Origin: a virus | Taxonomy: Duplodnaviria; Heunggongvirae; Uroviricota; Caudoviricetes | DNA: 64,000 nt | Strand: one strand, 5' to 3' | Virus record (IMG/VR): IMGVR_UViG_3300031951_000044 | Shown here: piece by piece, positions 8,365-42,062 of the stretch | How the letters are laid out: each line of letters opens with the position of its first letter | How positions within the stretch are numbered: position 1 is the first letter of the stretch | The notes under the pieces: generated by a model | Databases searched by the model: none | Told to the model about the DNA's origin: nothing | The model's input: only the letters and a program-made list of their open reading frames with translations | Program-made: the position numbers and the translations under genes

Positions 8365-8370
8365 CTTTTT

Positions 8371-9225: not shown

Positions 9226-9245
9226 GTTTGTTCTGTGTTTTAGAG

Positions 9246-10081: not shown

Positions 10082-10090
10082 ATATATGTA
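10069..10090 (-). promoter_or_regulatory. phage promoter motif
   Basis: ttgacgatgcaaatatatgta. Confidence 0.55.
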
Positions 10091-10114
10091 TAATTCCGTT
10101 ACCTTTTACGATTG

Positions 10115-10393: not shown

Positions 10394-10460
10394 TGTTACT
10401 TTGGTTTTGATTAATGCAAAGGTATAATGAAAATTCTAATTCTGCAAATTTTATTACCCC

Positions 10461-10838: not shown

Positions 10839-10874
10839 ATTATCTTTGGTTTAGTGATACAAAGGTACAAATAA

Positions 10875-11204: not shown

Positions 11205-11545
11205 GGTTGTTTTGGTTTTATTGGTTCTACTCTTTCTCTCTTAACAATATTAATTACCTTAAAATAAGACTCAATCGGTCCATATCCGTGATTTGTCCTA
11301 ACTTCATATGGACGATAATCACTATACGATAAGTTAATAATTTTATGAGAATCATTAGGAAAACCAGTGCAATATTGCTTTTCATCTGAACACATTCCAT
11401 CTTTTAGTCTCAGACCCGTTAAATACCACTCACCATTTACAAGTCTTGACTCAACAATAGGAAAAACTTCATCACCCTCTTTCAAATCCTCATTTGAGAA
11501 AAATACATCCGAATCAATATCCTTAAAATAAATGCAAATTTTCAT
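11201..11545 (-). CDS. hypothetical protein
   Basis: co-oriented ORF; promoter 11556-11579. Confidence 0.45.
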   Translation of the reverse strand: MKICIYFKDIDSDVFFSNEDLKEGDEVFPIVESRLVNGEWYLTGLRLKDGMCSDEKQYCTGFPNDSHKIINLSYSDYRPYEVRTNHGYGPIESYFKVINIVKRERVEPIKPKQP

Positions 11546-11672
11546 TGTTATCTTTCATTTATGCAAAGGTACAAAAAATTCCGGTTCGATGCAAGTAAAA
11601 CTTTTCAACAATGGACCAATTTTTTGTTAAAAAGTTTGTGTATCTTTGCCCCAATGGTTGTTTAATTTATAT

Positions 11673-11858
11673 CTACTCATCCTTAAACAAAATTATATCA
11701 CCATCCCCATCAACATCAACGTCATCCCACTTACCCATCGCTCGATAACGACTGAGGACAGTATCGGTGTCTTTGCTATCAAAGACTTCCAATGTCCTCA
11801 TATTGTCAGCATCAATCACTCGTTGCTTATTCATGGTCGTCATTTTTAATTTATGCAA
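11673..11858 (-). CDS. hypothetical acidic protein
   Basis: co-oriented ORF; promoter 11848-11872 (ttatgcaaagctacaacaaaaat). Confidence 0.4.
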   Translation of the reverse strand: MHKLKMTTMNKQRVIDADNMRTLEVFDSKDTDTVLSRYRAMGKWDDVDVDGDGDIILFKDE

Positions 11859-12126
11859 AGCTACAACAAAAATTCAAAAATACAAGCGCCAACGAAAAAT
11901 AATTTTTGACCATACCCCACACTAATAAGGAACGTGCGTGTGCGCGAAGTATACGCAAAAGACTTCGTATTTCCAAATAGTTTGAAAGAAAAAGTTATTA
12001 ACAGAAAAAAAATGTTAAAATCCTTGCTTTTGTTATATTTATTGTTATATGTTCTTTAGCTATTGCAGAATCAAAAAGTTCTCCGTATCTTGCTGGGTTT
12101 TTGAGATTAATTCGGTCCTATTAGAC

Positions 12127-12240
12127 GTTATGGACGCTATTGTATTAAGCTGTATAGCGTCTATTGTATTAGGCGTTATGGACGCTATTGTATTAAGCTG
12201 TATAGCGTCTATTGTATTAGGCGTTATGGACGCTAATAGG
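12127..12240. repeat. 48-bp tandem repeat x2.3 (iteron-like) inside 650-bp noncoding region
   Basis: gttatggacgctattgtattaagctgtatagcgtctattgtattaggc repeated at 12127, 12175, 12223; flanked by ttaataagttaataagttaat micro-repeats. Confidence 0.8.
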
Positions 12241-22882: not shown

Positions 22883-23021
22883 TATCTTTAATTGCTTTCA
22901 AGTCTTTAAAATCATTAAAATTAAATTCTTCATCTTTTTTACCTTTTACATTGTTGTAAACCATTTTTCCGCCAATGTATACCAAAATAACACCAAGAAT
23001 GATTTTGAAAAGTTTTCCCAT
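22872..23021 (-). CDS. small membrane protein (49 aa)
   Basis: manual ORF MGKLFKIILGVILVYIGGKMVYNNVKGKKDEEF... Confidence 0.3.
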   Translation of the reverse strand: MGKLFKIILGVILVYIGGKMVYNNVKGKKDEEFNFNDFKDLKAIKDIEF

Positions 23022-23025
23022 TTTA

Positions 23026-23325
23026 TTATTTTGTTTTAGTTGTTAGAGCTTCAGCTTTTGATTTAATGATTTCACTTACACCAATTTCATTTTCTTTGGT
23101 AAAGATAACGCTATTTTTCAAAACTGCAAAAGGAATGTGGATTAAAAAGTTTTTTCCATTAAAATAACTAAAATCTTGTGTTGTATCCAAGCAACCCTTA
23201 ATCGCTTTCAAAAAAATCGAAAATTGTGTTTCATCAACAAATCTTTCATCAACCACTTTTCCAAATGTATCATTCCAGATGATAATTTCAAAAACTTCTT
23301 TTTTCATTTTTGTTATTTTTGACAA
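23026..23325 (-). CDS. hypothetical protein
   Basis: co-oriented ORF; promoter motif 23316-23338. Confidence 0.45.
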   Translation of the reverse strand: MSKITKMKKEVFEIIIWNDTFGKVVDERFVDETQFSIFLKAIKGCLDTTQDFSYFNGKNFLIHIPFAVLKNSVIFTKENEIGVSEIIKSKAEALTTKTK

Positions 23326-23341
23326 AGATAACTAAAACTTT

Positions 23342-24142
23342 TCAAACTGGCAAATTAATTTTGTTCAAAATTTGATTTGAAACGTGTGTGTATATTTCTG
23401 TGGTTTTAACATTTGAATGACCAAGAATTTTTTGAATAATTCTTAAATCTGTTCCATTTTCTAATAAGGATGTTGCAAAACTGTGTCTAAGTGTGTGTAT
23501 ATGTCCATCAGATTCAATATATTTTTTGTATATTTTCTGACAACTACCTATTGAATATTTAGTACTGTTTTGTCCATTGAAGAGATATTCCTTTGGGATA
23601 TAATTTTTATAATAAGTTCTTAATAGTCTTAATACATTTTGAGATAATGGAACAACTCTATCTTTTCTTCCTTTTGCGTTCTTAATGTGGATTAACATTC
23701 GCTTGGAATCAATATCCTCTATTTTAAGATTAATTATTTCTGAGACTCGTAGACCAACTGAAAAAGTTAAGGTGAGAATTGCTTTGTGTTTGAGATTATC
23801 AATCTTATTTAATTTATCAATGATTGAATTTGAATCAATTACTTTTGGTAGTTTCTTCTCAGATTTAGGTCTTTTAAACGATATTTTATCATATTTTTTA
23901 TTAAGACCAAATTTGTAGAGAAATCTTATTGCGTTAATGATTTGGTTTTGTTGTGCTGTTGAAGTGAATTTATAATTATCTAAATAGGATTGAAAATCTT
24001 GAGCATTACAATGTATTACTTGTTTACTACCAATGTGATTTAAGAAATTTTTTATATGTGAAAGATAATTATCTTTTGTTCTTGGTGAATAGTTTAAATA
24101 TATAAACTTTTCTTCACAAATCTTAATAATTTTATTATTCAA
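23342..24142 (-). CDS. tyrosine site-specific recombinase (Xer/IntI-like, 266 aa)
   Basis: GLRVSE (box I Arg); HTLRHSFATSLLENGTDLRIIQKILGHSNVKTTEIYTHV (H-x-x-R, catalytic Tyr); apparent TTG start. Confidence 0.8.
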   Translation of the reverse strand: MNNKIIKICEEKFIYLNYSPRTKDNYLSHIKNFLNHIGSKQVIHCNAQDFQSYLDNYKFTSTAQQNQIINAIRFLYKFGLNKKYDKISFKRPKSEKKLPKVIDSNSIIDKLNKIDNLKHKAILTLTFSVGLRVSEIINLKIEDIDSKRMLIHIKNAKGRKDRVVPLSQNVLRLLRTYYKNYIPKEYLFNGQNSTKYSIGSCQKIYKKYIESDGHIHTLRHSFATSLLENGTDLRIIQKILGHSNVKTTEIYTHVSNQILNKINLPV

Positions 24143-24200
24143 GTCCTTTATTTTTAAGTGGTTAGATTATACTTACTTATATATACTAGTTATGTATAAT

Positions 24201-24407
24201 TTATTCCCAAATGATAACGCCTTTCATATTACCATGTGGATTAGTAAAAACGCCTTCATCATCTAAATCATACATATCCATAGTTCCAGAAAAATCAACT
24301 TGAATTGTGTTTAATTTTCCGTCCAAATTCCAATGAAGTGTTTTTACTTTTTTAATACCCCAGTCTTTACCGTGAATGTCGGTTATTTTAATTTTTGGTT
24401 GTTTCAT
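24201..24407 (-). CDS. cassette ORF, hypothetical
   Basis: first ORF upstream of recombinase; followed upstream by attC-like site. Confidence 0.45.
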   Translation of the reverse strand: MKQPKIKITDIHGKDWGIKKVKTLHWNLDGKLNTIQVDFSGTMDMYDLDDEGVFTNPHGNMKGVIIWE

Positions 24408-24439
24408 AAACTTTTATTTTAATTTGTGAATAAACTATA

Positions 24440-24533
24440 CATAACAAGGTGTATATGTAATTTTTTTTACAAAGGTACGAATAAGTTTTGACATTTCCAA
24501 ATAAAAAACTACATATACACCCAATCGTTAGGC
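24440..24533 (-). repeat. attC-like imperfect palindrome (site A) with internal TAccTTTG promoter
   Basis: +strand cACATAAC-aa-GGTGTATATGTA ...48 nt... TACATATACACC-caatc-GTTAGGc. Confidence 0.6.
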
Positions 24534-24537
24534 GCAA

Positions 24538-24756
24538 TTACAACAAACCCTTCGAGAAAAGTTGTGCAATTTGATTTTCGGTTAAATCTTCGCCTTTGAG
24601 CATTGCAGGTTCATTTACTCTTGTGCCATCGTGTTTAATTGTGTAGGTAACAGGATACTCTTTCTTCGGGTCAACAAATTTGACCAAGTAACTGCGCCTA
24701 ACAACGTATTGCTGAACATTGCCAGCTTCGTCTTTAACTTCAACTCTGATTTTCAT
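24538..24756 (-). CDS. cassette ORF, hypothetical
   Basis: ORF bounded by repeat elements. Confidence 0.45.
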   Translation of the reverse strand: MKIRVEVKDEAGNVQQYVVRRSYLVKFVDPKKEYPVTYTIKHDGTRVNEPAMLKGEDLTENQIAQLFSKGLL

Positions 24757-24823
24757 ATTTATTTTTTTGTTTTTAATTCAACATTTGTGTTTCAAATTGG
24801 CAACGTCAGCAATACGCAAACCG

Positions 24824-25105
24824 TTATATGCCACCTTGCGGTCTCAGCAACAAGTACCATCCGTTTTTTATGACATCTTCCCAAATCAATACTTCTGCAT
24901 TCAAAGATTGTGCTTGTTCAGTTATACCACCTTGTGCAAGTTGCCAAAGCATATTCATATTCAAAACATCTTCACGACTGATAAAGTATTGTTTTTTCAG
25001 TTCCAATTTTGACCAATCCCATGTTAACCCTTTCCTTCCCAAATCAAAAAGGCGGCATATAACAGCAGTTTGGCAAGATGCGGGGTTTTGTACTTCGTTT
25101 GACAT
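24824..25105 (-). CDS. cassette ORF, hypothetical
   Basis: stop codon overlaps aaaccGTTAtatg core. Confidence 0.4.
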   Translation of the reverse strand: MSNEVQNPASCQTAVICRLFDLGRKGLTWDWSKLELKKQYFISREDVLNMNMLWQLAQGGITEQAQSLNAEVLIWEDVIKNGWYLLLRPQGGI

Positions 25106-25171
25106 ATTGTTTTTTATTTAAAAATTTGTAATTCTAATCGTCTTTAGTGCTGTAAATCCCGCACCTCGCCA

Positions 25172-25557
25172 AGCTGCGAAACGTTATGTGTAAGTGTTCC
25201 ACCCATCGTTCTAATCAACATCTATGTTTAAAATTTTAAAAGAAAAATTATTTGTTAAATGGTTCACTAAACATAGTTTTAGGATATGTTTCTTCCTTTC
25301 TACTTGAAGGGTTAAATATAGTTACTCGTCCAACACCATACGGTTGGTTATCATATTTAATAACCAAATAATCCTTTTTATTATGAAGTTGGTAATTATC
25401 TTCTGGTGCGTTTTTACATGTGACGTATAACCCATCTTTAAAGTTTTCAAATTTTTTAACTATGTTTCCCATAATCTATATATTAATTTTTCTTTTAAAA
25501 TTTTTGTTCAGTTCTCCGATTAAACATTCCACCTTAATAATCCACACCTACACATAA
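25172..25557 (-). mobile_element. conserved cassette frame copy 1 (12-bp terminal IRs GTTATGTGTARG, ~80-nt conserved subterminal arms, inner IR AAATTTTAAAAGAAAAAT) carrying ORF 25248..25472
   Basis: arms near-identical to those at 29257..29820 while enclosed ORFs are unrelated. Confidence 0.55.
25248..25472 (-). CDS. cassette ORF, hypothetical (74 aa)
   Basis: inside conserved frame. Confidence 0.45.
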   Translation of the reverse strand: MGNIVKKFENFKDGLYVTCKNAPEDNYQLHNKKDYLVIKYDNQPYGVGRVTIFNPSSRKEETYPKTMFSEPFNK

Positions 25558-25610
25558 CAAATGATAAACAACATTAAAACGATTGTTTATCATCGGACGT
25601 TATTCCCCAT

Positions 25611-26063
25611 TTAAAAAACCTCAAATGGAGACACGTAATACATATTTGGTTTATAATCTGCGTATGATACCGTTTTCTGTTGTAAATATATCTTTATACA
25701 CGATGAATCTTTTGCAGTCAACCAAAAATATTTCACATTCTTACTATATTTTTCATCGTTAATTCTATATTCTTGCCCCTTTTGAATACAAATATTTTCG
25801 TCAATAACTTGATTTCTGTTAAATTCAATAAACGCTCCATAATCTCCAATTACAATTCTTTCATATCCTTTTGAAATTATTGTACCGTTTGCTGTTTTTA
25901 ACTCAAATTCAGAATCACCATTGATATTCAAACATTTTGGTATTTCAGACAAATATTGGTTTCTTACCTTGTCAGATAATTCTGATGGAAGTTTTTTGTA
26001 TTTATATTGTAATGCTAATTCGTCTTGTAACATAAAAAATTGGATAAAAACGGGGCATAACAC
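25611..26063 (-). CDS. cassette ORF, hypothetical (150 aa)
   Basis: ORF bounded by repeat elements. Confidence 0.45.
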   Translation of the reverse strand: MLCPVFIQFFMLQDELALQYKYKKLPSELSDKVRNQYLSEIPKCLNINGDSEFELKTANGTIISKGYERIVIGDYGAFIEFNRNQVIDENICIQKGQEYRINDEKYSKNVKYFWLTAKDSSCIKIYLQQKTVSYADYKPNMYYVSPFEVF

Positions 26064-26178
26064 ACGGTATAAAAAATTGGGGCGTGTGTGCGTTCCCGAA
26101 GGTTTGTACTATTAATTATCATTGTATCGGTGCGAAAGTTTATATCTTTTAATCCCCAACTTTTCATACCGTCAACCG

Positions 26179-26481
26179 TTATGCGGGATCGAGAACAATG
26201 CCGTGCGCTTTAAACACCGCCTCGACCTCTCCGATCCCGACCGCCCACACAATATCGTGTCCTCCGGATCCATCGCTTATATGCAGTCGTTCCTGTTCTG
26301 CGAGAATCTCTCGCACCATCGCCTTCACCTCGCTCTCGGTGAACACGCGCTCTTTCTTTTCCGAGCTCGCCTGAGGCTTTTCGCCTGAGCAGCGGCGGCA
26401 CGGTCTTGGTGGATTGATGCTGATGTGACCTCCGCACTTGGAGCACTTGCCGCTCGATGGGCCTAACTTCCTTTTTGCCAT
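26179..26481 (-). CDS. GC-rich cassette ORF, zinc-ribbon-like protein
   Basis: CSKCGGH...CRRCSG; ~60% GC versus ~30% genome background; flanked by ...caaccGTTATGCgg (26171-26185) and attC-like 26521-26581. Confidence 0.5.
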   Translation of the reverse strand: MAKRKLGPSSGKCSKCGGHISINPPRPCRRCSGEKPQASSEKKERVFTESEVKAMVREILAEQERLHISDGSGGHDIVWAVGIGEVEAVFKAHGIVLDPA

Positions 26482-26520
26482 TGTACCTTTTGCTTTTTAC
26501 CGAGTGAAAAAGAATGACCC

Positions 26521-26581
26521 CGCATAACAGTCGGGTTGCCGTTATTGAATGCACAACGGCAACCCGCCGAACCGTTATGTG
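26521..26581 (-). repeat. attC-like site (site F) upstream of GC-rich cassette
   Basis: cgCATAAC-agtcg-GGTTGCCGTT-attgaatgcac-AACGGCAACC-cgccgaacc-GTTATGTg. Confidence 0.55.
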
Positions 26582-26586
26582 TAATA

Positions 26587-26994
26587 CTACATTTGTTCTC
26601 CGATTTGAGTTTCATCTGCAATATCTTTTTCTTTTCTTTTTTCTCCACGCTCTTTAAGAGTAATAATATTATTTCTCAAAGAATTTATTTTTCTTTCGTA
26701 TTCTTTGAATTTTAAATATTCATCATCATATATTTTTATTCTTTCAACATTTTCTGGTGTGTTTTCAGCCAAAGCCCAAGAATAAGTTGCTTGTAATCTT
26801 TCACCAGTTTCTTTACAAGTAAATTCATAACTGCCATTATCTCGTTGAATAACATTATTCATTATCGTTCCAATTTTAATTGGTTTACTTTCAAGTTTGT
26901 TAGGTATCCAAACCATATCTAATCTGTAAATATATTCCATATCAGATTTTGGTTTTCCATTGTCTTTATCTATTAAACAATCAAATATTCCCAT
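26587..26994 (-). CDS. cassette ORF, hypothetical
   Basis: ORF in array. Confidence 0.45.
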   Translation of the reverse strand: MGIFDCLIDKDNGKPKSDMEYIYRLDMVWIPNKLESKPIKIGTIMNNVIQRDNGSYEFTCKETGERLQATYSWALAENTPENVERIKIYDDEYLKFKEYERKINSLRNNIITLKERGEKRKEKDIADETQIGEQM

Positions 26995-26995
26995 T

Positions 26996-27595
26996 TTATT
27001 TATTATTAAATATGTTTATAATTTTTCGAATTTCATCTTGTTTCCAAGGTCTATTCTTACTGCCATCTTCAGAAATTGTTAAATAATCACCATCATATCC
27101 CAATGCTCTTTCAATTAACCAAGGTCTTGATTCTTGTTCAACTGCAATCCACCCATCTTTTGTTTTACCAATTGGAGTACTTCCTTCCTTAATTTCTTCA
27201 CTACCATCTAATGGTAATAAATCTCTTGTTTCATTATAAATTATTCTTGTATCTTTGAATAGTTCATACACTAATCCAACATCTTCACCAGTCCATTCAG
27301 TATCTTCTGTTTGATGTTCATATTTTTTAGCAAGAAAATAACCATCAGATTCTGTTCTTAAAACATATTTTTGATGTAATATTTTTCTACATTCTCTATT
27401 ATAATGGTCAATAGTGTTTTGAATATCTTCTTGTCCTTTCCAATAGTTGTCTTCGCCTACCGAAAGCGAATCACCATTTTGTGGCTGTTCACCAACAAAT
27501 TTTTGATTATCTAAACAAGCCAGTATCATTTCAAAGGAATCTTCCGATATTACAATGTTTCCTTTACCGTCTTTTTTTGCTTCAATTTTCATCAT
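26996..27595 (-). CDS. cassette ORF, hypothetical (199 aa)
   Basis: ORF in array. Confidence 0.45.
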   Translation of the reverse strand: MMKIEAKKDGKGNIVISEDSFEMILACLDNQKFVGEQPQNGDSLSVGEDNYWKGQEDIQNTIDHYNRECRKILHQKYVLRTESDGYFLAKKYEHQTEDTEWTGEDVGLVYELFKDTRIIYNETRDLLPLDGSEEIKEGSTPIGKTKDGWIAVEQESRPWLIERALGYDGDYLTISEDGSKNRPWKQDEIRKIINIFNNK

Positions 27596-27599
27596 AGTT

Positions 27600-27917
27600 T
27601 TAAATTTTAGTTTTTAACATTTCTTTATAAGCATTACCTGTATCAAATTGTTGTTCAAATGTTGGATTTGGATAATGTTCGTTTTTAATCCAATTATCGT
27701 GATGTTCAAATGTTCTCCATTCATTATCACGTAATTCTTTTACCATATTCATCAATCCAGTTCCAACTTTCATATCAGAAGGAATTTCAACTCCACCATC
27801 TGGTGTAACTTTTACAATTGTTTCTAATTTCATATTATTTATTTTTAAATTTTTCAAATTTATTTTGTCCAACCCACAAAAAAGAAAAGAAAAAGGTTCA
27901 GTTCTCCGAATGAGCAT
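27600..27917 (-). CDS. cassette ORF, hypothetical
   Basis: ORF in array. Confidence 0.45.
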   Translation of the reverse strand: MLIRRTEPFSFLFCGLDKINLKNLKINNMKLETIVKVTPDGGVEIPSDMKVGTGLMNMVKELRDNEWRTFEHHDNWIKNEHYPNPTFEQQFDTGNAYKEMLKTKI

Positions 27918-27941
27918 TTGTAGTTTAAATCCGTACTACTG

Positions 27942-28033
27942 CTAACATCGTGTATAAAACATAGCCAATTAAGGTCTGTGGTTTATATTAAGTATTGTGC
28001 GTGGCTACGTTTCATACACCCAACCGTTAGGTG
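27942..28033 (-). repeat. attC-like site (site G)
   Basis: CTAAC-atc-GTGTATAAAAC ...48 nt... GTTTCATACAC-ccaacc-GTTAGGTG. Confidence 0.55.
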
Positions 28034-28042
28034 TAATAAATT

Positions 28043-28231
28043 TTACTCCAACACACCCTTCAAAGTTCGTTTCTTCATTTCACCAAAGTTTCTTTCTTCT
28101 TCTGCCAATTTTCGTAGTTCTTCTTGAAGTTCCATTGGTATTTTATCACCATACTTACCAAGTATCTGAAATAATAATGTTTCCCTACCTAAAGAAACTT
28201 TCATATCAATTAACAGTTGTATATCTTTCAT
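28043..28231 (-). CDS. cassette ORF, hypothetical
   Basis: ORF in array. Confidence 0.4.
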   Translation of the reverse strand: MKDIQLLIDMKVSLGRETLLFQILGKYGDKIPMELQEELRKLAEEERNFGEMKKRTLKGVLE

Positions 28232-28250
28232 AATCCGTAAAATTTACATA

Positions 28251-28383
28251 CACCTAACAAAGTATAACCAAAAGTGGGGTGTAGTTCCAACATTCAGATA
28301 TTGTGCTTCTAATTTACTTTTGTAGGTAAGTCAGGGTTCGGCACTTCTAATCCCCACCTTCGGTTATACTCAACCGTTATAAG
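28251..28383 (-). repeat. attC-like site (site B), nested hairpin
   Basis: CACCTAAC-aa-AGTATAACC...aaGTGGGG...CCCCACctt...GGTTATACT-caacc-GTTATAAG. Confidence 0.6.
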
Positions 28384-28395
28384 TAATAAAACAAA

Positions 28396-28626
28396 CTACT
28401 TTATTCTGTTTATTTTTATAATAAATATTTTAGTGAAAATCATCCAGATCATAAATAAAGTTGAAGACGAAACTAAAATATTTACCAAAAATTGTTTTAC
28501 ACTGAATCCAAAGTGTGATAAATACCACCACCCACTAATAGAACTACCTATTGTTAAAAATAAACAGAATAAAATAAACAGTGTATATAATATACCATCT
28601 AGCGTAATTTGACCTTCAATTTTCAT
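28396..28626 (-). CDS. cassette ORF, small membrane protein
   Basis: hydrophobic 76-aa ORF. Confidence 0.4.
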   Translation of the reverse strand: MKIEGQITLDGILYTLFILFCLFLTIGSSISGWWYLSHFGFSVKQFLVNILVSSSTLFMIWMIFTKIFIIKINRIK

Positions 28627-28656
28627 ATTTAATTATTATTTAGTTTGTTTTACATA

Positions 28657-28813
28657 CTTATAACAACAAATATAAGAAATAAATTTTGATTTATCTAATT
28701 TTTATAGGTAAAATTTACTTCTCATATTTACAACCGTTATGCAAAAGTGTGGCAAGAAAGTTTTGTCTATAATTTGAAATTTTGGAGTTGCCACACCTTC
28801 GCATAACAACGGC
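28657..28813 (-). repeat. two adjacent attC-like sites (possible ORF-less cassette)
   Basis: cTTATAAC-aa-CAAATAT...ATATTTA-caacc-GTTATGCaa overlapping GTTATGC-aaaa-GTGTGGCAA...TTGCCACAC-cttc-GCATAACaacgg. Confidence 0.45.
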
Positions 28814-28858
28814 TAAAACGACAATATTTAAAAACTTTCCCACCGCACAATTGAACAA

Positions 28859-29182
28859 TTAAGAATTACCAAGTATAATGTCAATCACTTCTTTTGGTGC
28901 TTCTATCAATTCATCTTCACGGTATTTTCTCCATCCTGCCTGATTTTCTTCTTGTGAAATACTGTGAGCAATCACCCAAGTAAATTCTCCTTTTTCAGAA
29001 TACTTTTCTACAAATTCCTTTTGAGCAATTACATGTTTGCACAAATAAAATACCTGCGTTCCTGCATAGCAAGTTTGTGCAATCACTTCCATTACTTCCA
29101 AAGCACTCATCTGGTTCTTTGAATTGGTGTCGAATTTTCTTTTCACCAAATTGTTTACGTCAAATTTTGTTTTGATTTCCAT
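28859..29182 (-). CDS. cassette ORF, hypothetical
   Basis: ORF in array. Confidence 0.45.
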   Translation of the reverse strand: MEIKTKFDVNNLVKRKFDTNSKNQMSALEVMEVIAQTCYAGTQVFYLCKHVIAQKEFVEKYSEKGEFTWVIAHSISQEENQAGWRKYREDELIEAPKEVIDIILGNS

Positions 29183-29256
29183 TTTACTTTTTGTTTTTAA
29201 TTATTATTATTTAATTGATTAATTATTTCCCTCGCAAAAGTTTTTAAATACTGCGT

Positions 29257-29820
29257 TTAGCCGATATACGTTATGTGTAAGCGTTCCGTTCATCGTTCTA
29301 ATCAACATTTCGGTTGAAAATTTTAAAAGAAAAATCAAAATCCATAATGAAACCATTTATCATCATTTGGTAGTTGTTCTTTTAATTGTTTGTTTATTTT
29401 TCCCACTATATTTTGAGCAGTAACCGAAGTTATACCTTTAACATCAAAATCATAAGCAATTTGACCGATTGAATATACAAACATTCTCAGTAATTCTCTT
29501 GGTATATCAAATGTTATATCCACATCATAAGTATAGTTTTTACCAGAAAAGTTTATTTCGTCACTTATTGGTCGCATAACTAAGTGATGTAAATCTTCAA
29601 ACCAATCCTTACTCAGTCTTTCACAACCTTTTTTCATCATTGACTCTACCCAAGTTCCAGATGAATTCCACTCTTCTCTTGTTAGAGAAATTTTAACCAC
29701 CTTTTCAAAATAATTGATAGTTGTAATTTTTTGTTTATAATTCATATATTTTTCTTTTAAAATTTTTGTTCATTTCTACTATTTAACATTCTACCTTAAT
29801 TAACCACACCTACACATAAC
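29257..29820 (-). mobile_element. conserved cassette frame copy 2 carrying ORF 29335..29745
   Basis: acGTTATGTGTAAGcgttcc...ttctaatcaacat...aaattttaaaagaaaaat | ORF | atttttcttttaaaatttttgttca...ccacaCCTACACATAAC. Confidence 0.55.
29335..29745 (-). CDS. cassette ORF, hypothetical (136 aa)
   Basis: inside conserved frame. Confidence 0.45.
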   Translation of the reverse strand: MNYKQKITTINYFEKVVKISLTREEWNSSGTWVESMMKKGCERLSKDWFEDLHHLVMRPISDEINFSGKNYTYDVDITFDIPRELLRMFVYSIGQIAYDFDVKGITSVTAQNIVGKINKQLKEQLPNDDKWFHYGF

Positions 29821-29909
29821 AAGGTGTATAAGAAAGTTTGCTATAAAGTTCAGTGGTTAATTTGAAAGTTCATCTAAGCAAACCTTCTCATACACCCAAC
29901 CGTTATAAG
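29813..29909 (-). repeat. attC-like site (site C)
   Basis: CACATAAC-aa-GGTGTATAAG...CTCATACACC-caacc-GTTATAAG. Confidence 0.6.
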
Positions 29910-29916
29910 TAATAAT

Positions 29917-30162
29917 TTAAAATTTATTTATTATTTTATTTTCAATATATTCTTTAACTTTTGACGGTAATATTTGTGTTGGAAATGACCCTTCCGCACC
30001 AACATACATTTCACTACTTGCAACATCACTTGCATCTATTTTATAATATTGTTCATCTGGTGAACATATCGTTACATGAGTTACCTCACCCCATCTACCA
30101 GAACCAACCCAATAAAACCATAGGTCATTTCCAATATGTATTTTTCTTTTCGTTTTTTTCAT
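29917..30162 (-). CDS. cassette ORF, hypothetical
   Basis: ORF in array. Confidence 0.45.
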   Translation of the reverse strand: MKKTKRKIHIGNDLWFYWVGSGRWGEVTHVTICSPDEQYYKIDASDVASSEMYVGAEGSFPTQILPSKVKEYIENKIINKF

Positions 30163-30244
30163 AGGTATAAATTGTAAATTACATACTTATAACAGCAAAT
30201 AAAACACATTAAAACGATTGTTTATCATCAGACGTTATAAACAA

Positions 30245-30523
30245 TTAAATTATTTTCCGCAACAGTTCATCTTTATCCAAAAAAATATCATCCTGTTTAT
30301 ACCAATCATAACTAGATAAATGTCCACCTGAAGGATAGAATTGTTCATTAACTACAACCAAGTAATCAATTTCAATTCCATCCATTTGTTCCATTGTTTC
30401 GCCTTTGATATAAGGTACCCCATGAACAATTCTAATCTTTTCAATTTTACTTTTAAATATTTTTTTGGATAAAAGTATATATACTTCTTGTCCAACATCA
30501 TACTTTACATTATATGTTTTCAT
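30245..30523 (-). CDS. cassette ORF, hypothetical
   Basis: ORF in array. Confidence 0.45.
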   Translation of the reverse strand: MKTYNVKYDVGQEVYILLSKKIFKSKIEKIRIVHGVPYIKGETMEQMDGIEIDYLVVVNEQFYPSGGHLSSYDWYKQDDIFLDKDELLRKII

Positions 30524-30541
30524 AATAAAATAATTTAACGT

Positions 30542-30664
30542 GTTTATAACAACAAATATAAAACATTTATTTCAGCGTTCCAAATTTATTGTTGGTTTAT
30601 ATTTATATACTGTTTTTCAATTTAAGTTTAGTTTAAAACGTTTTATATTTGCAACCGTTATAAG
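30542..30664 (-). repeat. attC-like site (site D), perfect L boxes
   Basis: gTTTATAAC-aa-CAAATATAAAAC ...75 nt... GTTTTATATTTG-caacc-GTTATAAG. Confidence 0.6.
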
Positions 30665-30670
30665 CAAGTG

Positions 30671-32674
30671 CTACATCTCGTTTCCAAATATAGTCCCTAC
30701 ATGTAAATCTTTTTCTTTTCTTTTTTCTTCCCACGCTTTTTTTATTTCCATAGAAAGAAATGGTAAAATCGAAAAAAGTAGTTTATTTAAGTGTTTTAAA
30801 ACATAGTAAAACTCTGTTTCATATTTAATTCTCATATTGGAATTTGTGTCAGATTCATAAAATTCATTTTTAATATCCTCCGTCAACAAAGATGAATAAT
30901 AGTTTATAAATTCAACAAAACCCCTTACTGCTTTATTCAAATCAAATTCATTGACAAGTAAATCAAATTTATTTTCCAACTCTTTTACTTTAAAAAAAAT
31001 ATTTTCATCAACTTTTGTTTCATCATAATCATATATATATAGATTATTAAATAAATAACGGAGAAAGTTTCTTATTTTAAAATATTGTTTACCAGAGTTT
31101 TTTAATGAATCTTCCGAAAAGACAATATCGTTTTTAAAATCTGACAGTAAAACCCATAGTCTTAATACATCAGGGTTATATGTTTCATACAGCTTTTCCA
31201 AACTTCCGCCATTACCTTTTGATTTTGATAGTTTTTCTAATGTGTTATCAACAATAAATCCGTGTGTTATTATTCTTTTTGTTGGTACTCGACCAATCAT
31301 TGATGCTAATATAATCGAACTTTGAAACCACCCTCTGTGTTGGTCTGAACCTTCAATGTATATATCGGCAGGTTTATCATACATCATAAATGTAGAACCA
31401 CTATCAAACCAAACATCCAATATATCATTACTATTAGGTATTTTAACACCCCATTTTCTTTGTCTTGAAATACACCAATCTTTGCGTGAAAATATTGTCG
31501 TTGATAAACGATTTCTGTCTTTTGATGATAACTTTATTTCTTTTAAACAAGTCTTTATTTTGTTTAAATCAAAATCAAGATACGTTTGTTCCGTTAATAC
31601 TTTATACACCTTATTCCCTTCACGCCAATCAATTGGATAATCGTGTGTGTAAATTTCACGTTTATATACAAACTTTTCATCAATTTTAAAATCTTCTATG
31701 TGTTTTAATAAGCCGATTTTATCGCACACATTTTTGGGGGTTATGTTATTATCCATTAAAATTCGATAATCTTCATCACCGTGTCCACCGCAAAGATGTA
31801 CTATACCTGTTTTATCATCTGAAACGTAGTCATCATAAATAATTGGACATAAATCTCCATTGTGGTTATGATATGACTTAATATTACTCACATCAAACAA
31901 ATCATAATCTAAATTATTTTCAATAGCAAAACTTTCACTACAAATAATATTGTCAACAGTTTTAACATATTTTATATTATTACTTAAACATACTGCCTGA
32001 TTTCCGTTTACAGTCCATTCTGTTGTTGTCCAAACAAGTAATTTAAAACTATCAGAGTTGAATAGAAAATACAAAGATTCATCTTCTATTTTTTTATATT
32101 CAATTTCTGAGTTAGCCAATACTGTTTTTAATGTTGGTGAGTACCAAGTAGGCTTATTCTTTTTAAGAATTAGACCCGCATTTAGTAGTTGGTGGTATAT
32201 ATATAATTCTCTTTCTATAAAATCAATATCCATAGTTTTAAACCTACCTTCAGTTGGATAAATCCCGAAAAGTTCAAGAGTTTTATTTTGAATATCACAA
32301 TATTTGGTTGCGACTAATTTAGCATTTTGAATTAAATCACCACTCATTTCTTTTGCTTTATTTTCAATGGGTAAACCATGACAGTCCCAACCAAATGAAA
32401 CCCTAACTTTCTTACCTTTTGTTAAGTAATATTTTACAACAAAATCTTTCAAGGTTTTGTTTAAAAAATGTCCCAAATGTAATTCTCCATTGGCGTATGG
32501 TTCACCATCTTGTATAATGTATTCATCATTTGAATTTTCATACAAGTTGTTCACATAATCTTTGATAGAAGCGTTCAATAAAGTAAGTTTATCTCTATCT
32601 AACTTCTGTGTAATTTCTTCTTTTGGTAATAATACTTTATTCATTATTTTAAATTTTATTTTCCCACCACACAA
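30671..32674 (-). CDS. ileS: minimalist isoleucyl-tRNA synthetase-like class I aaRS (667 aa)
   Basis: PYANGELHLGH (HIGH), GWDCHGLPIE, WTTTEWT, DWCISRQRKWGV, DVWFDSGST, EGSDQHRGWF, KLSKSKGN (KMSKS) - IleRS signature blocks; CP1 and C-terminal regions much shorter than bacterial IleRS. Confidence 0.7.
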   Translation of the reverse strand: MCGGKIKFKIMNKVLLPKEEITQKLDRDKLTLLNASIKDYVNNLYENSNDEYIIQDGEPYANGELHLGHFLNKTLKDFVVKYYLTKGKKVRVSFGWDCHGLPIENKAKEMSGDLIQNAKLVATKYCDIQNKTLELFGIYPTEGRFKTMDIDFIERELYIYHQLLNAGLILKKNKPTWYSPTLKTVLANSEIEYKKIEDESLYFLFNSDSFKLLVWTTTEWTVNGNQAVCLSNNIKYVKTVDNIICSESFAIENNLDYDLFDVSNIKSYHNHNGDLCPIIYDDYVSDDKTGIVHLCGGHGDEDYRILMDNNITPKNVCDKIGLLKHIEDFKIDEKFVYKREIYTHDYPIDWREGNKVYKVLTEQTYLDFDLNKIKTCLKEIKLSSKDRNRLSTTIFSRKDWCISRQRKWGVKIPNSNDILDVWFDSGSTFMMYDKPADIYIEGSDQHRGWFQSSIILASMIGRVPTKRIITHGFIVDNTLEKLSKSKGNGGSLEKLYETYNPDVLRLWVLLSDFKNDIVFSEDSLKNSGKQYFKIRNFLRYLFNNLYIYDYDETKVDENIFFKVKELENKFDLLVNEFDLNKAVRGFVEFINYYSSLLTEDIKNEFYESDTNSNMRIKYETEFYYVLKHLNKLLFSILPFLSMEIKKAWEEKRKEKDLHVGTIFGNEM

Positions 32675-32772
32675 AAAGAAAAGAAAAAGGTTTCGTCTTT
32701 CAAATCAAGTTCTGTGCTATAATACCGCACCTGCTTATAACAGCGTGTATATGCAAGTGGCGGGTTTGTGGT

Positions 32773-33036
32773 TTATTCAACATAAGTACCTTTTACTTTT
32801 GTAATTTGATATCCAAAAAATAATAAAGCTGATTTTAAAAGTTTATTTCTATCCTTGTTCTGTCTAATATATATTCTTTTTTCATTATCATTTTCGGTTC
32901 TACAGTTAGTTAACTTACCTTTAAACGCTGTTATAATTGCGCATTCATATTTTTGAATATGACTATATATTCTATTTAAACTTGATTCGTTAATGTTATT
33001 AAACTCATTTATGAGTTTTCTCATTTCAGTACTCAT
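32773..33036 (-). CDS. hypothetical protein
   Basis: ORF; upstream of last repeat element 32700-32770. Confidence 0.45.
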   Translation of the reverse strand: MSTEMRKLINEFNNINESSLNRIYSHIQKYECAIITAFKGKLTNCRTENDNEKRIYIRQNKDRNKLLKSALLFFGYQITKVKGTYVE

Positions 33037-33059
33037 GATTTTTATTTTTCAATAAATAT

Positions 33060-33374
33060 CTATACCTTATCCAATTCTTCAGACAATTCTCTCAAGAATG
33101 ATTCATCGCCATCATCACCCGATAAAAACCAATCAACTCTTTGTACATAAATTCTTGCAATTGTTAATGATTTAATTGCTTCTTGCAATTTTTCTTGAAT
33201 TTCTTTTGAATAGGTTGGATAATATTTTTCTTCTGGATATTTTTCAAGATATTCATCACTACACCAACGTTCTTCTTTTGGTCTTTCTTTTCCTTGTCTA
33301 TTTAAAACTCTTTCAATATCATCAATGATATCATTAAGTTGATATTTTTTATAATCAAAATAACCTCCTGACAT
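33060..33374 (-). CDS. hypothetical protein
   Basis: co-oriented ORF. Confidence 0.45.
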   Translation of the reverse strand: MSGGYFDYKKYQLNDIIDDIERVLNRQGKERPKEERWCSDEYLEKYPEEKYYPTYSKEIQEKLQEAIKSLTIARIYVQRVDWFLSGDDGDESFLRELSEELDKV

Positions 33375-33386
33375 GTTTTTATTTTT

Positions 33387-33962
33387 TTAGTACCACCAAT
33401 TAATTAAACCCTTACCATTGTGAACATCTTCATATGCTTTACCTTTATGTTCGGTATACATATCAACATTATAGATATCGCCTTTTAAAATATCAAAAAG
33501 TTCATTCCAAACTTCTTTCTCAATTTTTGAAGATTCCTCAAAAATTTTCCAGTTCGCTTGTCTTTCTTCTTCGCTTTCTTCATCAAAAACCAATCTTTTA
33601 CTGGTAGAACCTTCAATTGGTTCAAATTTAAAATCTCTAAAAACTGTTTTATAACCAAGTCTAGCTTCCGCCATATCATGAAATTTATCTTCGAGAATGC
33701 AATCCGTTAAATAAATTGCTCTCTTCATATAATAAAGTTTCAATCTAAGTGTTGGTTCATATTCATTGCTGAACTTTTCCATTGATTCTTTCTGTGTAAT
33801 CAAAGACCTTCTTAGCATTGAGATAGTATAATACCGGTCCCAACCACCAAAGGATTTAAGTTCTCTCCTGAACCTCCAAATGTTCTTAAAAAATCTTGGA
33901 ATATCCCATCGGATAAATTCCCAAGTATTTCTAAAATAATATGAAAAACTATGTTTAAACAT
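33387..33962 (-). CDS. hypothetical protein
   Basis: co-oriented ORF. Confidence 0.45.
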   Translation of the reverse strand: MFKHSFSYYFRNTWEFIRWDIPRFFKNIWRFRRELKSFGGWDRYYTISMLRRSLITQKESMEKFSNEYEPTLRLKLYYMKRAIYLTDCILEDKFHDMAEARLGYKTVFRDFKFEPIEGSTSKRLVFDEESEEERQANWKIFEESSKIEKEVWNELFDILKGDIYNVDMYTEHKGKAYEDVHNGKGLINWWY

Positions 33963-34842: not shown

Positions 34843-35913
34843 TTAATTGTTTAAAACAATTTTTTTGGTTTTATCGTTTAATCTTAATAAATATATTCCA
34901 GCATTTAGCTGAACTGATCCATTATTCAAATCATGAATAAATCTCCCAGAGATATCACAAATATTAGCTATTTTGTATTCATGTTGGTTGGTTAATGAAA
35001 CCAATCCATTTTGTATTAAAATTGCATCAAAATTATTATTAACTGAAACTATTGGTGAATATGTATAATCACCATCATAATCAACTTGTTTTAAGCGATA
35101 ATATATTATTTTATCATTATTTACATTAAAATCTGTATAATTATACAATATATTTTGTTGTGAGTAACCAATTGAAATTATATTGGCTATTTTATAGAAA
35201 TTAAACGCATCAAATGACTTTTCAATTTCAAAATGCGAATTATCCACTTCTGATGATGTCAACCACTCTAAATTAATTTTATTTTCAATTGACCTCACAT
35301 TAAAATAAACTAACTCAATTGGTAAAGTTGTAAACGAATGTGTGAGTTTCACATTATCAATTCTTACTGTCCCATCGACCGAGCCACCCCAAAAATAAAT
35401 TTTAAAATTTGCTGAACCAGTCACCAATTGATTAATTCCCGCACCAAGTGAAACGCAACTTGTTGATGTTGAATTAAATATTGATTGAGAAACACCATTC
35501 ATATATACAGCAAGGTTGGTGGGTCCAGTGGATGATCTTCTGAAACTAAAACTTAATTGATTTAAATAAAACGAAACATTTGGATATGTTGATATTGTAA
35601 ACTCATAATAATGAGCGAGATTTATTGCTGGACTAGTCCAAGATTTTGTTATAAAGGATGTGTTGTTATTTGTACAAATCAAATCGGGGCATCCGGCTGC
35701 ACATCCATCATTAATGCTACTACATCCCGAACCAAGTGGTAAAGTTGTTGTCACAGGTGTTGCATTAAAATATGGAAAAATATAATCAGGATTATTATTA
35801 CATACATTAAAATCATAAAATACCAAATCTGTTTGTGAGAAAGTTTTAATGTTGAAAACAAAACCAAAAATTATTATAAATATATATTTTAATTTGTTAT
35901 TTATTATTTGCAT
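34843..35913 (-). CDS. secreted protein with T9SS (Por) C-terminal sorting domain
   Basis: signal peptide MQIINNKLKYIFIIIFGFVFNIKTFSQ; C-terminus ...NAGIYLLRLNDKTKKIVLNN typical Por_Secre_tail. Confidence 0.55.
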   Translation of the reverse strand: MQIINNKLKYIFIIIFGFVFNIKTFSQTDLVFYDFNVCNNNPDYIFPYFNATPVTTTLPLGSGCSSINDGCAAGCPDLICTNNNTSFITKSWTSPAINLAHYYEFTISTYPNVSFYLNQLSFSFRRSSTGPTNLAVYMNGVSQSIFNSTSTSCVSLGAGINQLVTGSANFKIYFWGGSVDGTVRIDNVKLTHSFTTLPIELVYFNVRSIENKINLEWLTSSEVDNSHFEIEKSFDAFNFYKIANIISIGYSQQNILYNYTDFNVNNDKIIYYRLKQVDYDGDYTYSPIVSVNNNFDAILIQNGLVSLTNQHEYKIANICDISGRFIHDLNNGSVQLNAGIYLLRLNDKTKKIVLNN

Positions 35914-35969
35914 ATTTTTAAGCGAAAGAATGTTTTTATAAACATAAGTATTTATATATAAAAAATAAA

Positions 35970-36347
35970 ATGAATATAAGAACAAAAATTAAAAAACTTT
36001 TAAAGGAATCGGATAGACAAAATAATTTAAAAGATTTTATTGTGGATAATATAGATTTTGATGGGTATGATATTAGACCAACAAAAAATCCATTAAAAAC
36101 CGGTTTGGAAATATTCGTGAATGAATATGATTTTGAAATCAAAAGACGTGGTATGAAACGAGCATTTATTGAGTATTTGCAAGGTTTACCAAGTTGGATT
36201 AGTTTACCGTATTCTTATTATGATATTGAGCATTTAATGTATGCTTTGGGTTATGATGAAATCAAAGATAAGAATATGGAAGATGATGAAATCGCTAATT
36301 TATTTTATAACGAGGTTGCAAATATATTTTTAGATAGTATTATCTAA
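35970..36347 (+). CDS. hypothetical protein (plus-strand island)
   Basis: only sizeable + ORF not shadowing a minus gene here. Confidence 0.4.
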   Translation: MNIRTKIKKLLKESDRQNNLKDFIVDNIDFDGYDIRPTKNPLKTGLEIFVNEYDFEIKRRGMKRAFIEYLQGLPSWISLPYSYYDIEHLMYALGYDEIKDKNMEDDEIANLFYNEVANIFLDSII

Positions 36348-41474: not shown

Positions 41475-42062
41475 ATGATATTTATGGTTATGAAAAAGAT
41501 AAAATTAACAGAATCGGATTTATATAGAATTGTTAGAAAGGTTCTTCTTGAACAGGAGGAAGAAAAGAGAAGTTTTACATTTTCTCCGGGAGCATTTGCA
41601 TCTTTTATAACATCATCATCAGGTGAAAGATTTGTTAAACATCTTAATAACAAATATGATGAGATTGTTGTTAATGGGCATTTGGATTTAAGTGAAACAC
41701 AAATTCAATCCTTACCGGATAATCTTAAAGTTGGGGGAAGTTTGTGGTTAAATGGAACACCAATTCAATCCTTACCGGATAATCTTCATGTTGGGGGAAG
41801 TTTGTATTTACGAGGAACACCAATTCAATCCTTACCGGATAATCTTGACGTTAAGGGATTGTTGGATTTAAGAGGAACACCAATTCAATCCTTACCGGAT
41901 AATCTTCGTGTTGGGGGAAGTTTGTGGTTAAATGGAACACCAATTCAATCCTTACCGGATAATCTTAGGACTGGATTAGAAATTGATATTATCAATACAC
42001 CATTAAGTAAAAATGATGAATTAGTTGCGAACTATAGAAAAAAATATATAATTGTTAAATAA
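41475..42062 (+). CDS. LRR-like repeat protein (5 x 20-aa GTPIQSLPDNLxVGGSLWLN)
   Basis: 60-bp tandem DNA repeats 41695-41975. Confidence 0.55.
   Translation: MIFMVMKKIKLTESDLYRIVRKVLLEQEEEKRSFTFSPGAFASFITSSSGERFVKHLNNKYDEIVVNGHLDLSETQIQSLPDNLKVGGSLWLNGTPIQSLPDNLHVGGSLYLRGTPIQSLPDNLDVKGLLDLRGTPIQSLPDNLRVGGSLWLNGTPIQSLPDNLRTGLEIDIINTPLSKNDELVANYRKKYIIVK
41695..41975. repeat. 60-bp in-frame tandem repeat x ~4.7
   Basis: caattcaatccttaccggataatctt... repeated. Confidence 0.85.

Follow-up and report, generated by a model that had tools for sequence, protein, structure and literature searches.

An integron-like gene-cassette array beside a Xer-like tyrosine recombinase gene in a phage genome

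The IMG/VR record IMGVR_UViG_3300031951_000044 (Caudoviricetes) contains, in the 64,000 nucleotides (nt) analysed here and called the window, a tyrosine recombinase gene and, upstream of it, a run of small, co-oriented open reading frames (ORFs) separated by imperfect palindromes. The question raised by this locus is whether these palindromes are recombination sites that delimit mobile gene cassettes and, if they are, which enzyme moves them. An earlier note on positions 23342-33040 proposed an integron-like cassette array, of a non-canonical kind rather than one of the integron classes 1-5. Both parts of that proposal stand: each testable prediction of the integron-like reading held, and the recombinase lacks the IntI-specific insertion, falls below the IntI cut-offs and is co-oriented with the cargo. 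The sequence evidence makes it probable that the cassettes are recombined in an integron-like, site-specific way by the adjacent Xer-like, non-IntI enzyme, probably on folded single strands. The system is integron-like in most testable respects, yet it falls outside the IntI integron family, since it lacks three of that family's defining traits: the IntI insertion, extrahelical bases, and promoterless cassettes oriented for expression from the integron cassette promoter (Pc).

The spacers of the array show 12 hairpins, located by reading and by pattern search, plus a thirteenth (28803..29273) with an ORF of 107 amino acids (aa) inside a loop of 430 nt, against at least seven palindromes claimed before. 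On the + strand the layout is YTAAC, 1-3 nt, L stem, loop, L' stem, 5-6 nt (caacc) and GTTA, so the asymmetric spacers described in the note are real; on the minus strand, 5' to 3', it is about 10 variable nt (x), TAAC, G(G/T)TT, stem, loop, stem, T, GTTA and about 10 variable nt (y). These sites show the R''-L''...L'-R' organisation of attC sites with AAC/GTT cores, many of the cores being GTTAT.., which makes the fit to GTTRRRY a loose one. A covariance model, built on the hairpins of related loci and run with filters off across all 64 kb, gives 12 matches at E<=1.3e-3, every one on the minus strand and within 24432-30667, and nothing below E=0.3 elsewhere in the window. The related loci are 80 IMG/VR loci encoding recombinases 55-80% identical to that of the window, and 33 non-redundant hairpin families from related loci were used for a consensus by RNAalifold and pair counting. 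This consensus shows an invariant R helix of 5 base pairs (bp), TAACG/TGTTA, a bulge of 3-4 nt on the 5' side only, and a continuous L helix of 18 bp with changes on both sides at 16 of the 18 pairs. The compensatory, both-sided cells number 190, vs 58±6 in shuffles and no more than 48 with slid partners, and one G·T wobble is kept in 30 of the 33 families. Of the attC-like stem with extrahelical bases anticipated earlier, the conserved and covarying stem stands and the extrahelical bases do not: none is conserved in the L helix of the 33-family consensus, and the asymmetry lies in the one-sided bulge and the G·T wobbles. That the palindromes are products of chance and composition in AT-rich intergenic DNA, or ordinary terminators, has a negligible probability and was rejected: a loose TAAC..stem..GTTA pattern is indeed not enriched in the window (25 matches vs 15.7 in shuffles), but the hairpins are confined to one strand and one region, recur in more than 80 loci, covary, and have no T-runs.

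The variable boxes outside the cores delimit the units. The 10 nt after GTTA and the 10 nt before the next TAAC, which lie on the two sides of the cargo, are paired at a mean of 6.6 of 10 positions, with a mode of 9 of 10 (n=356). The same boxes within one hairpin are paired at a mean of 3.5 of 10 positions vs 3.4 of 10 at random, in agreement with the claim that the cores of one site are not mutually complementary. This cross-cargo complementarity is a hallmark of integron cassettes, in which the complete site exists only in the circular unit.

Comparisons between loci place the natural breakpoints at the same cores. In locus pairs with identical cargo and different neighbours, the hairpin located 5' of the ORF travels along with it and the homology ends at TAAC on both sides. 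The ends of 95%-identical matches between loci cluster at the core: of 26 starts, nine coincide with the T of TAAC, and of 26 ends, 13 coincide with its C or with the G after it. Three loci (L001, L014 and L015), whose backbones are 95.5-99.96% identical, contain the same cassettes in different order, with cassettes c1-c2 distal in one of them and recombinase-proximal in the other two. The Flavobacterium Muminvirus isolates, 97-100% identical in shared segments, differ in both cassette content and order, and one hairpin-plus-methyltransferase unit is present in four upstream contexts that diverge exactly at TAAC (junctions x|TAAC). Gene order in related genomes is not fixed, and the changes have their breakpoints at the core, as the cassette proposal required. 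A counterpart of cassette 6 is present in the contigs L175-L180 (51-53% GC), with the same hairpin and unrelated flanks, and the identity runs from AAC|GGTTC to ..CCCGYATAACG; this diverged copy indicates that cassettes are exchanged between genomes whose base compositions differ greatly. The ORF of this cassette (100 aa) shows no relatives among the viral contigs, and the homologue that proved informative was an entry of the protein database. The contigs L175-L180 are GC-rich, phage-like metagenome contigs with arrays of the same hairpin class, and one of their genes gives a weak match to Phage_T4_Y07B.

At the recombinase-proximal end of the array the junction with the recombinase gene has a different structure. 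In an alignment of 17 loci, the sequence upstream of TAAC is unrelated and the sequence downstream is conserved, TAAC-TATTATATATA..TAA.., the switch from variable to conserved falling exactly at TAAC. This leader resembles the half of a hairpin that contains the R box, the spacer and the L box, without a partner arm, and its motif is present in 55 of the 80 loci. BLAST matches of the recombinase module stop at 24192-24205, and the recombinase-proximal cassettes vary among near-identical backbones. By its sequence the junction looks as an attI site would be expected to, and cassettes would presumably be inserted there. The array is also linked to the recombinase gene across the related loci: 385 hairpins of this class are on the recombinase strand and 57 on the other, at least two same-strand hairpins are located within 3 kb upstream of the recombinase gene in 45 of the 48 viral loci with enough sequence (mean 4.3), and none of 72 loci shows such hairpins downstream of it.

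The recombinase, proposed in the note as a tyrosine recombinase, shows a PF00589 catalytic domain (1.9e-37) and a PF13495 (SAM_4) core-binding domain, and no others. The residues R132, H216, R219, H242 and Y251 are invariant among 13 homologues. It falls under the cut-off of each family model tried, that is IntI, XerC, XerD and XerA: 195 vs a cut-off of 220 for NCBIfam XerA_Arch, 161 vs 335 for XerC, 159 vs 330 for XerD, 107 vs 435 for PRK15417, and 161 bits vs 265 for the IntI model TIGR02249, which matches in two pieces around the insertion. The enzyme is Xer-like in architecture, yet it is no XerC, XerD or XerA equivalog. The closest solved structures are XerA 4a8e (P. abyssi, 131 bits), IntI4 2a3v, XerA 5hxy and XerD 1a0p. 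In the alignment with VchIntIA (2a3v), residues 175-208 of the recombinase (34 aa) cover residues 178-259 of IntI (82 aa), and because 34 residues stand against 82 the IntI-specific insertion, the I2 alpha-helix, is absent. An ordinary phage integrase is also not what is found: the protein consists of the core-binding and catalytic domains only, with no arm-binding N-terminal domain, no tRNA, attP or attB context is seen at the gene, and no lysogeny module was seen in a non-exhaustive search for lysogeny genes. The two tRNAs of the window, at 2787 and 6639, are far from the recombinase gene. At E<=1e-30 a protein search gives over 6,000 homologues; those nearest among isolated phages belong to Ingeline (41% identity) and to Freya and Leef (35-36%).

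Folding shows a strand preference. The non-Watson-Crick positions of the stems are 573 G·T vs 57 A·C on the coding strand, the latter being G·T on the other strand, and folds with DNA parameters are more stable for the minus strand in 11 of 12 hairpins. On the + strand the order is the recombinase gene at the left, the attI-like site, and cassettes that begin with G|TTA and end with R''-L''..L'-G. From this geometry the folding strand would correspond to the 'bottom' strand of integrons, and the cut would map to its 5' core.

A second explanation is duplex recombination of Xer/dif type in the manner of pdif modules, in which the R box (..CATAAC), a conserved spacer GGTT(G) and the L box (GTATATG.., which imperfectly repeats the R box in inverted form) would form a double-stranded site for ordinary two-strand exchange by the adjacent enzyme, while the second arm of the hairpin would serve some other purpose or have no role. 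The pdif modules of Acinetobacter plasmids and other Xer/dif systems are like this array in their Xer-type enzyme, in the inverted site halves that bound the modules and in the alternating site orientation. The recombinase is Xer/XerA-like and without the I2 insertion, a conserved spacer of 4-6 nt is flanked by what look like inverted binding elements (the R box and the beginning of the L arm), the attI-like site has a layout of R box, spacer and TATAT with no hairpin partner, and R-box-bounded modules take turns with L-arm-bounded ones along the array, with an ORF inside one 'loop' (28803..29273). A duplex core made of R box, GGTT and L box can be drawn. This explanation is unlikely, because it leaves unexplained the covariation by which L'' and L' stay paired, the 10:1 bias of G·T towards one strand and the complementarity of 10 nt across each cargo, and because the two junctions of a hairpin cannot be the same duplex site when their spacers differ by 3 nt (about 4-5 vs 1). 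The 28-bp duplex dif-like sites of pdif modules (11-6-11), which host XerC and XerD recombine, also contrast with the long, covarying hairpins and unequal spacers found here, and, unlike in Xer/dif systems, the recombinase is single, with no XerC/XerD pair, is encoded by the element and is located beside the array.

A third explanation considers the hairpins as conserved regulatory elements, involved in RNA processing or stability or serving as promoters like those of promoter-early stem-loop (PeSL) cassettes; modules would be shuffled by homologous or illegitimate recombination between these repeats, and the recombinase would have an unrelated function, such as integration or concatemer resolution. 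Arbiol and colleagues reportedly described PeSLs in 2010 as mobile regulatory cassettes of T4-type phages. The array resembles them in its small accessory ORFs, its position in a hyperplastic region of a large phage, its conserved stem-loop separators and its modular shuffling. Unlike PeSLs, which are driven by homology and have no recombinase, it shows breakpoints at a core of 4-5 nt, complementary boxes across the cargo, and a linked recombinase and attI-like site. The stem-loop terminator and sigma-70 early promoter of a PeSL are also not found here: intrinsic-terminator-like sites number 1 vs 2.4 expected, and sigma-70-like promoters are not enriched, 59 vs 51±6.7 expected, a partial test since the promoters of Bacteroidota differ from sigma-70. 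These counts accord with the expectation that the hairpins are neither terminators nor sigma-70 promoters, and an Rfam scan of 23000-33500 at E<=1 gives nothing. The regulatory explanation can point to the wobble pattern on the sense strand, to hairpin families more conserved than their cargo (an identical 48-nt hairpin is common to many cassettes), to a motif like TTCAAATTTAGCAC that recurs in loops, to one loop with a Bacteroidetes-type TTTG-N19-TAccTTTG, and to the existence of one natural breakpoint inside a loop and of arrays with no recombinase gene. It is quite improbable all the same, given that the breakpoints occur amid unrelated flanks at a core too short for homologous recombination, that the cross-cargo complementarity is left unexplained, that promoter, terminator and Rfam signals are lacking, and that array, attI-like junction and recombinase are linked in 45 of 48 loci. 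The idea that every loop is a promoter found no support, since TAnnTTTG (the Bacteroidetes -7 box) is present in or beside a few hairpins only.

The integron-like reading suggests the following scheme. A cassette, read on the coding strand, consists of TAAC, a bulge of 3-4 nt with the sequence (G)GTT, a hairpin of 17-21 bp whose loop varies, T-GTTA, a stretch of about 10 nt reverse-complementary to the last 10 nt of the same cassette, the ORF or ORFs, and the bases just before the next TAAC. Excision as a circle would join the two ends of the cassette and produce the complete site, with an R helix of 13-14 bp, the bulge and the L helix. The 266-aa recombinase would recognise these sites, which most likely fold on the coding strand, and would cut at a presumptive position within the conserved TAAC(G) core. 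Recombination between two hairpins would lead to excision or reshuffling of cassettes, and recombination between a hairpin and the attI-like site, just upstream of the recombinase gene, to their insertion. The cassettes would form a pool of accessory genes, with ORFans and a gene similar to isoleucyl-tRNA synthetase (IleRS) here and DNA methyltransferases in relatives, and this pool would be shared among unrelated phages, some of them with arrays but no recombinase gene, and bacterial chromosomes. In this scheme the recombinase is presumably the catalyst, single-stranded DNA is presumably used, and resolution by replication and action in trans on the arrays with no recombinase gene are likewise presumed.

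Several observations weigh against this integron-like reading. The recombinase lacks the I2 insertion that the literature holds to be needed for hairpin recombination (PMC7790495, PMC9024848). Arrays with no recombinase gene are present in Muminvirus, in the Polaribacter phage P12002L and in the 462-kb uncultured phage LR756500, and no array is seen at the Ingeline locus (L081), the sole homologue locus of an isolated phage that was examined. In the comparisons between loci, 11 of 26 match starts and 10 of 26 match ends have no core within 12 nt, the breakpoint of the variant L172 falls inside the loop of a hairpin, on a motif also present in other loops, and cassettes with an identical 48-nt hairpin could be exchanged by homologous recombination, which would explain some of the rearrangements. 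A role of the G·U-type wobbles at the RNA level is possible because, with inverted cargo, the strand that folds best is the sense strand of the mRNA. Finally, 96% of the cells are paired across the 33 hairpin families, a figure inflated because the hairpins were pre-selected for at least 12 pairs, whereas the covariation is not built in by that selection.

Compared with integrons, including the sedentary chromosomal ones with their homogeneous attC families, the locus contains the same parts: a recombinase gene, an attI-like site and a cassette array. It is also like them in the R''-L''...L'-R' sites with AAC/GTT cores and unequal spacers, in the R' box at the start of the cassette, by which the R''/R' pair exists only in the excised circle, in how the array is polarised with respect to the recombinase side, in the preference for folding of one strand, in the mostly ORFan cargo, and in the existence of integrase-less arrays, similar to clusters of attC sites lacking an integron-integrase (CALIN). 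Unlike integrons, its recombinase has no I2 helix and fails the IntI cut-offs, the complementarity of the R boxes reaches about 13-14 bp, no extrahelical bases occur in the L helix, their place being taken by a one-sided bulge of 3-4 nt between the helices and by conserved G·T wobbles, and the carrier is a phage genome of lytic type. The phage cargo is also inverted: each ORF has its hairpin on the 5' side and shares the orientation of the recombinase gene, towards which it points. Expression of Pc type from the attI side is not possible.

Bacterial recombinases 42-58% identical to that of the window adjoin arrays of the same logic. They are found in Flavobacteriia and in other phyla: in isolates of Aestuariivivens, Mariniflexile, Wocania, Flagellimonas and Seonamhaeicola, in a complete chromosome of Aquimarina, and in metagenome-assembled genomes (MAGs) of Nitrospirota, Cloacimonadota and others. 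The layout is the recombinase gene followed by co-directional ORFs with opposite-strand hairpins between them. The Aestuariivivens locus (L124) shows CAAC/GTTG cores, cross-cargo complementarity, and ORFs encoded on the strand that does not fold, as in the canonical arrangement of ORF then attC; its recombinase (377 aa) carries about 100 additional aa at the N terminus. The pattern-based hairpin finder missed these CAAC/GTTG variants because it required TAAC/GTTA cores, and the covariance model found them. From their sequences, the bacterial arrays look like a bacterial version of the phage system, one that integron surveys do not list. The bacterial loci are L124 (Aestuariivivens insulae), L136, L115, L164, L165, L142 (Aquimarina sp. 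W85), L092/L094 (Nitrospirota MAG) and L127 (Cloacimonadales).

Related arrays have been met before under other descriptions. Qi et al. (2023) reported a CALIN in the Polaribacter phage P12002L, in which no integrase was found and the sites were treated as classical attC (PMC9892861). Its P12002L_attC1 (30005-30060, minus strand), between methyltransferase genes, is a hairpin of the class described here, TAAC-GGCT-stem..stem-T-GTTAGGC, and attC1 was the only one of six sites not recombined by IntI1 (PMC9892861). The P12002L attC2 site, which was recombined by IntI1, shows a terminal R box and non-hairpin sequence, unlike this hairpin class (PMC9892861). The link to a Xer-like recombinase, the cassette boundaries and the shuffling go beyond that study (PMC9892861). 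Apart from this CALIN report, searches of open-access papers gave no account of such arrays tied to a non-IntI recombinase; an earlier description elsewhere is possible. The Muminvirus isolates (L082/L084, L166-L169) are siphoviruses of 38 kb whose variable left end is an array with up to five DNA methyltransferase cassettes; the paper on them tied methyltransferase content to plating efficiency and left the cassette structure unremarked (PMC7077304).

A wider proposal is that these loci belong to a second, IntI-independent lineage of integrons, in which Xer/XerA-like enzymes without I2 recombine folded hairpins, with the bulge and the G·T wobbles as the strand cue. This lineage would have two layouts, ORF then hairpin in Flavobacteriia and other bacteria and inverted cargo in phages, and one pool that moves anti-restriction and other accessory genes between unrelated phages, across genomes of 28%-52% GC and between phages and hosts, and it would explain part of the integrase-less CALIN arrays; the chances of this proposal being right or wrong appear balanced. 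According to the current account of integrons, hairpin recombination arose once, when a Xer-like ancestor acquired the I2 helix (PMC7790495), and the detection tools require the I2 domain (PMC9024848). An abundant family of I2-less recombinases locked to attC-like arrays challenges this single origin, and would represent either an independent solution or the ancestral state. It also points to blind spots: the IntegronFinder 2.0 survey found essentially no integrons in Flavobacteriia (PMC9024848), where they are thought to be nearly absent, and CALINs may have recombinases that went unrecognised. For the hyperplastic accessory regions of large phages the system would offer a concrete mechanism of gene exchange, that of methyltransferase genes included, and its hairpins and recombinase could become a cassette-capture tool for Bacteroidota.

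The array of the window consists of 14 units located at 24189-32757, all on the minus strand, each formed by an attC-like hairpin followed by its cargo ORF or ORFs (Table 1).

Table 1. Positions of the recombinase gene, the attI-like junction and the 14 cassettes in the window
Feature	Position	Strand	ORF(s)	Hairpin	Boxes and remarks
Tyrosine recombinase gene	23342..24142	-	266 aa, TTG start		Xer/XerA-like, without IntI insertion
attI-like junction	24143..24193	-			Box TATACATAAC of the last cassette, then conserved non-hairpin leader (TAGTATATATAAGTAAG...) up to the recombinase start codon
Cassette 1	24189..24530	-	24201..24407 (68 aa)	24442-24530, 77.1 bits	GTTATGTATA and TATACATAAC, perfectly complementary
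Cassette 2	24527..24826	-	24538..24756 (72 aa)	24699-24826, 30 bits, E=2e-4	GTTAGGCG (start) and CGCCTAAC (end); stem 11/11
Cassette 3	24823..25186	-	24824..25105 (93 aa)	25060-25186, 32.5 bits	GTTATATGCC and GGCATATAAC
Cassette 4	25183..25602	-	25248..25472 (74 aa)	25555-25602 (48 nt), 39.3 bits	
Cassette 5	25599..26181	-	25611..26063 (150 aa)	26058-26181, 44.4 bits	GTTATTCCCC and GGGGCATAAC
Cassette 6	26178..26577	-	26179..26481 (100 aa), GC-rich	26525-26577	GTTATGCGGG (start, 26178) and CCCGCATAAC (end, 26529)
Cassette 7	26574..28029	-	26587..26994, 26996..27595, 27600..27917	27943-28029, 74.9 bits	
Cassette 8	28026..28379	-	28043..28231 (62 aa)	28255-28379, 35.3 bits	GTTAGGTGT and ACACCTAAC
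Cassette 9	28376..28739	-	28396..28626 (76 aa)	28661-28739, 54.5 bits	GTTATAAGT and ACTTATAAC
Cassette 10, atypical	28736..29273	-	28859..29182 (107 aa), between L stems	L stems CGGCTAAAACG (28812-28822) and CGTTTAGCCG (29254-29263); 10-bp stem in correct register at both cores	GTTATGC (28736) and GCATAAC (28803-28809), around a short ORF-less palindrome; read directly from the sequence
Cassette 11	29270..29905	-	29335..29745 (136 aa)	29817-29905, 99.9 bits	
Cassette 12	29902..30237	-	29917..30162 (81 aa)	30190-30237, decayed, 48-nt family (repeat family D7); 26.6 bits, E=1.3e-3; weak fold	
Cassette 13	30234..30660	-	30245..30523 (92 aa)	30547-30660, 38.4 bits, stem 15-17 pairs	
Cassette 14, distal array end	30657..32757	-	30671..32674 (667 aa), IleRS-like	half hairpin, ~32733-32757	GTTATAAGCAAG (start) and CTGCTTATAAC (end)

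The note had counted about 17 co-oriented ORFs up to the end of its range; 16 small to medium minus-strand ORFs, at 24201-32674, belong to the array, and the ORF 32773..33036, at the far end of that range, is not demonstrably a cassette. Pfam and PHROG searches of the cassette ORFs give no match apart from the IleRS-like gene. The ORF of cassette 6, the GC-rich cassette that had been put at about 60% GC, shows 56.8% GC, and the other cassette ORFs range from 24 to 39%. The stop codons of the 93-aa and 100-aa ORFs (24824-24826 and 26179-26181) are the TAA of the R-box TAAC, so these two ORFs reach the recombination site, and hairpin arms overlap the 5' ends of ORFs at 24699-24722 and 25060-25105. 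Neither the pattern search nor the covariance model shows a hairpin between the three ORFs of cassette 7. The hairpin of cassette 10 was missed by the covariance model because of its long loop. Cassette 14 shows no partner arm for its half hairpin by reading or by the covariance model. Its IleRS-like ORF matches PF00133 (1.1e-65) and scores 385 bits with TIGR00392 ileS, vs a cut-off of 621. The product of this largest cargo is a compact aminoacyl-tRNA synthetase of class I, which shows the motifs HLGH and KLSKS and is far shorter than a normal IleRS; an IleRS paralogue is an unusual cargo for a phage cassette.

Some hairpins and flanks are shared among cassettes. The hairpin family of cassette 4 is present with up to 100% identity in many loci, often in multiple copies per locus, and that of cassette 11 with about 90% identity in many loci. 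Cassettes 4 and 11 are the two that had been noticed for near-identical arms around different cargo, and the arms are indeed shared: 25172-25248 and 29259-29335 are 84% identical, and 25486-25560 and 29748-29822 are 91% identical (repeat families D3 and D4). These arms, of 65-75 nt, surround unrelated ORFs and are also found in at least eight other loci; they behave as an exchangeable 'cassette chassis' and are possibly functional untranslated regions. Ends of a miniature inverted-repeat transposable element (MITE) or of a transposon were considered as the repeats that flank the cargo and were rejected: the repeats are specific to each cassette yet covary between its two ends, there is no transposase, and the boundaries are the hairpin cores. 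The loops often share a motif like TTCAAATTTAGCAC / TTAATATAAACCAC, for example at 27975-28000, 29850-29870 and 28300-28325 of the window. The same motif begins two half hairpins, one at the distal end of the array (32745-32800) and the other at the breakpoint of the variant L172 (L172:960-1000), and its role may be that of a promoter, of a binding site for a protein or of a second point of recombination.

The surroundings of the array fit a large phage of lytic type from Bacteroidota, to judge from their gene content. Every gene in about 20-36 kb of the window is on the minus strand. Besides the two tRNAs, the lytic-type gene set of the window includes two genes for RNA ligases and one for an SbcC-like nuclease; these ligases and the nuclease are the neighbours of the recombinase gene and are typical of large lytic phages. 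Megablast with 25 kb of the window shows no match at the DNA level among 50,697 phage records. Promoter motifs of the Bacteroidetes type TTG...TAnnTTTG are present in the window. On the minus strand of 146-11900, a strong, recurring promoter-like motif, TTG..N~19..TA(nn)TTTG, then CAT(C/T)GTCAAAC, is located 5' of many genes, and is probably a class of Bacteroidetes-type phage promoters, perhaps late ones. The ORF at 34843-35985 (minus strand, 380 aa), which gives no Pfam or PHROG match, shows a signal-peptide-like N terminus and a C-terminal tail resembling a Bacteroidota secretion sorting domain. The window also contains two tandem repeats: one of 48 nt in 2.4 copies, 98% identical, at 12119-12235, and the other of 60 nt in 4.8 copies, 84% identical, at 41681-41966.

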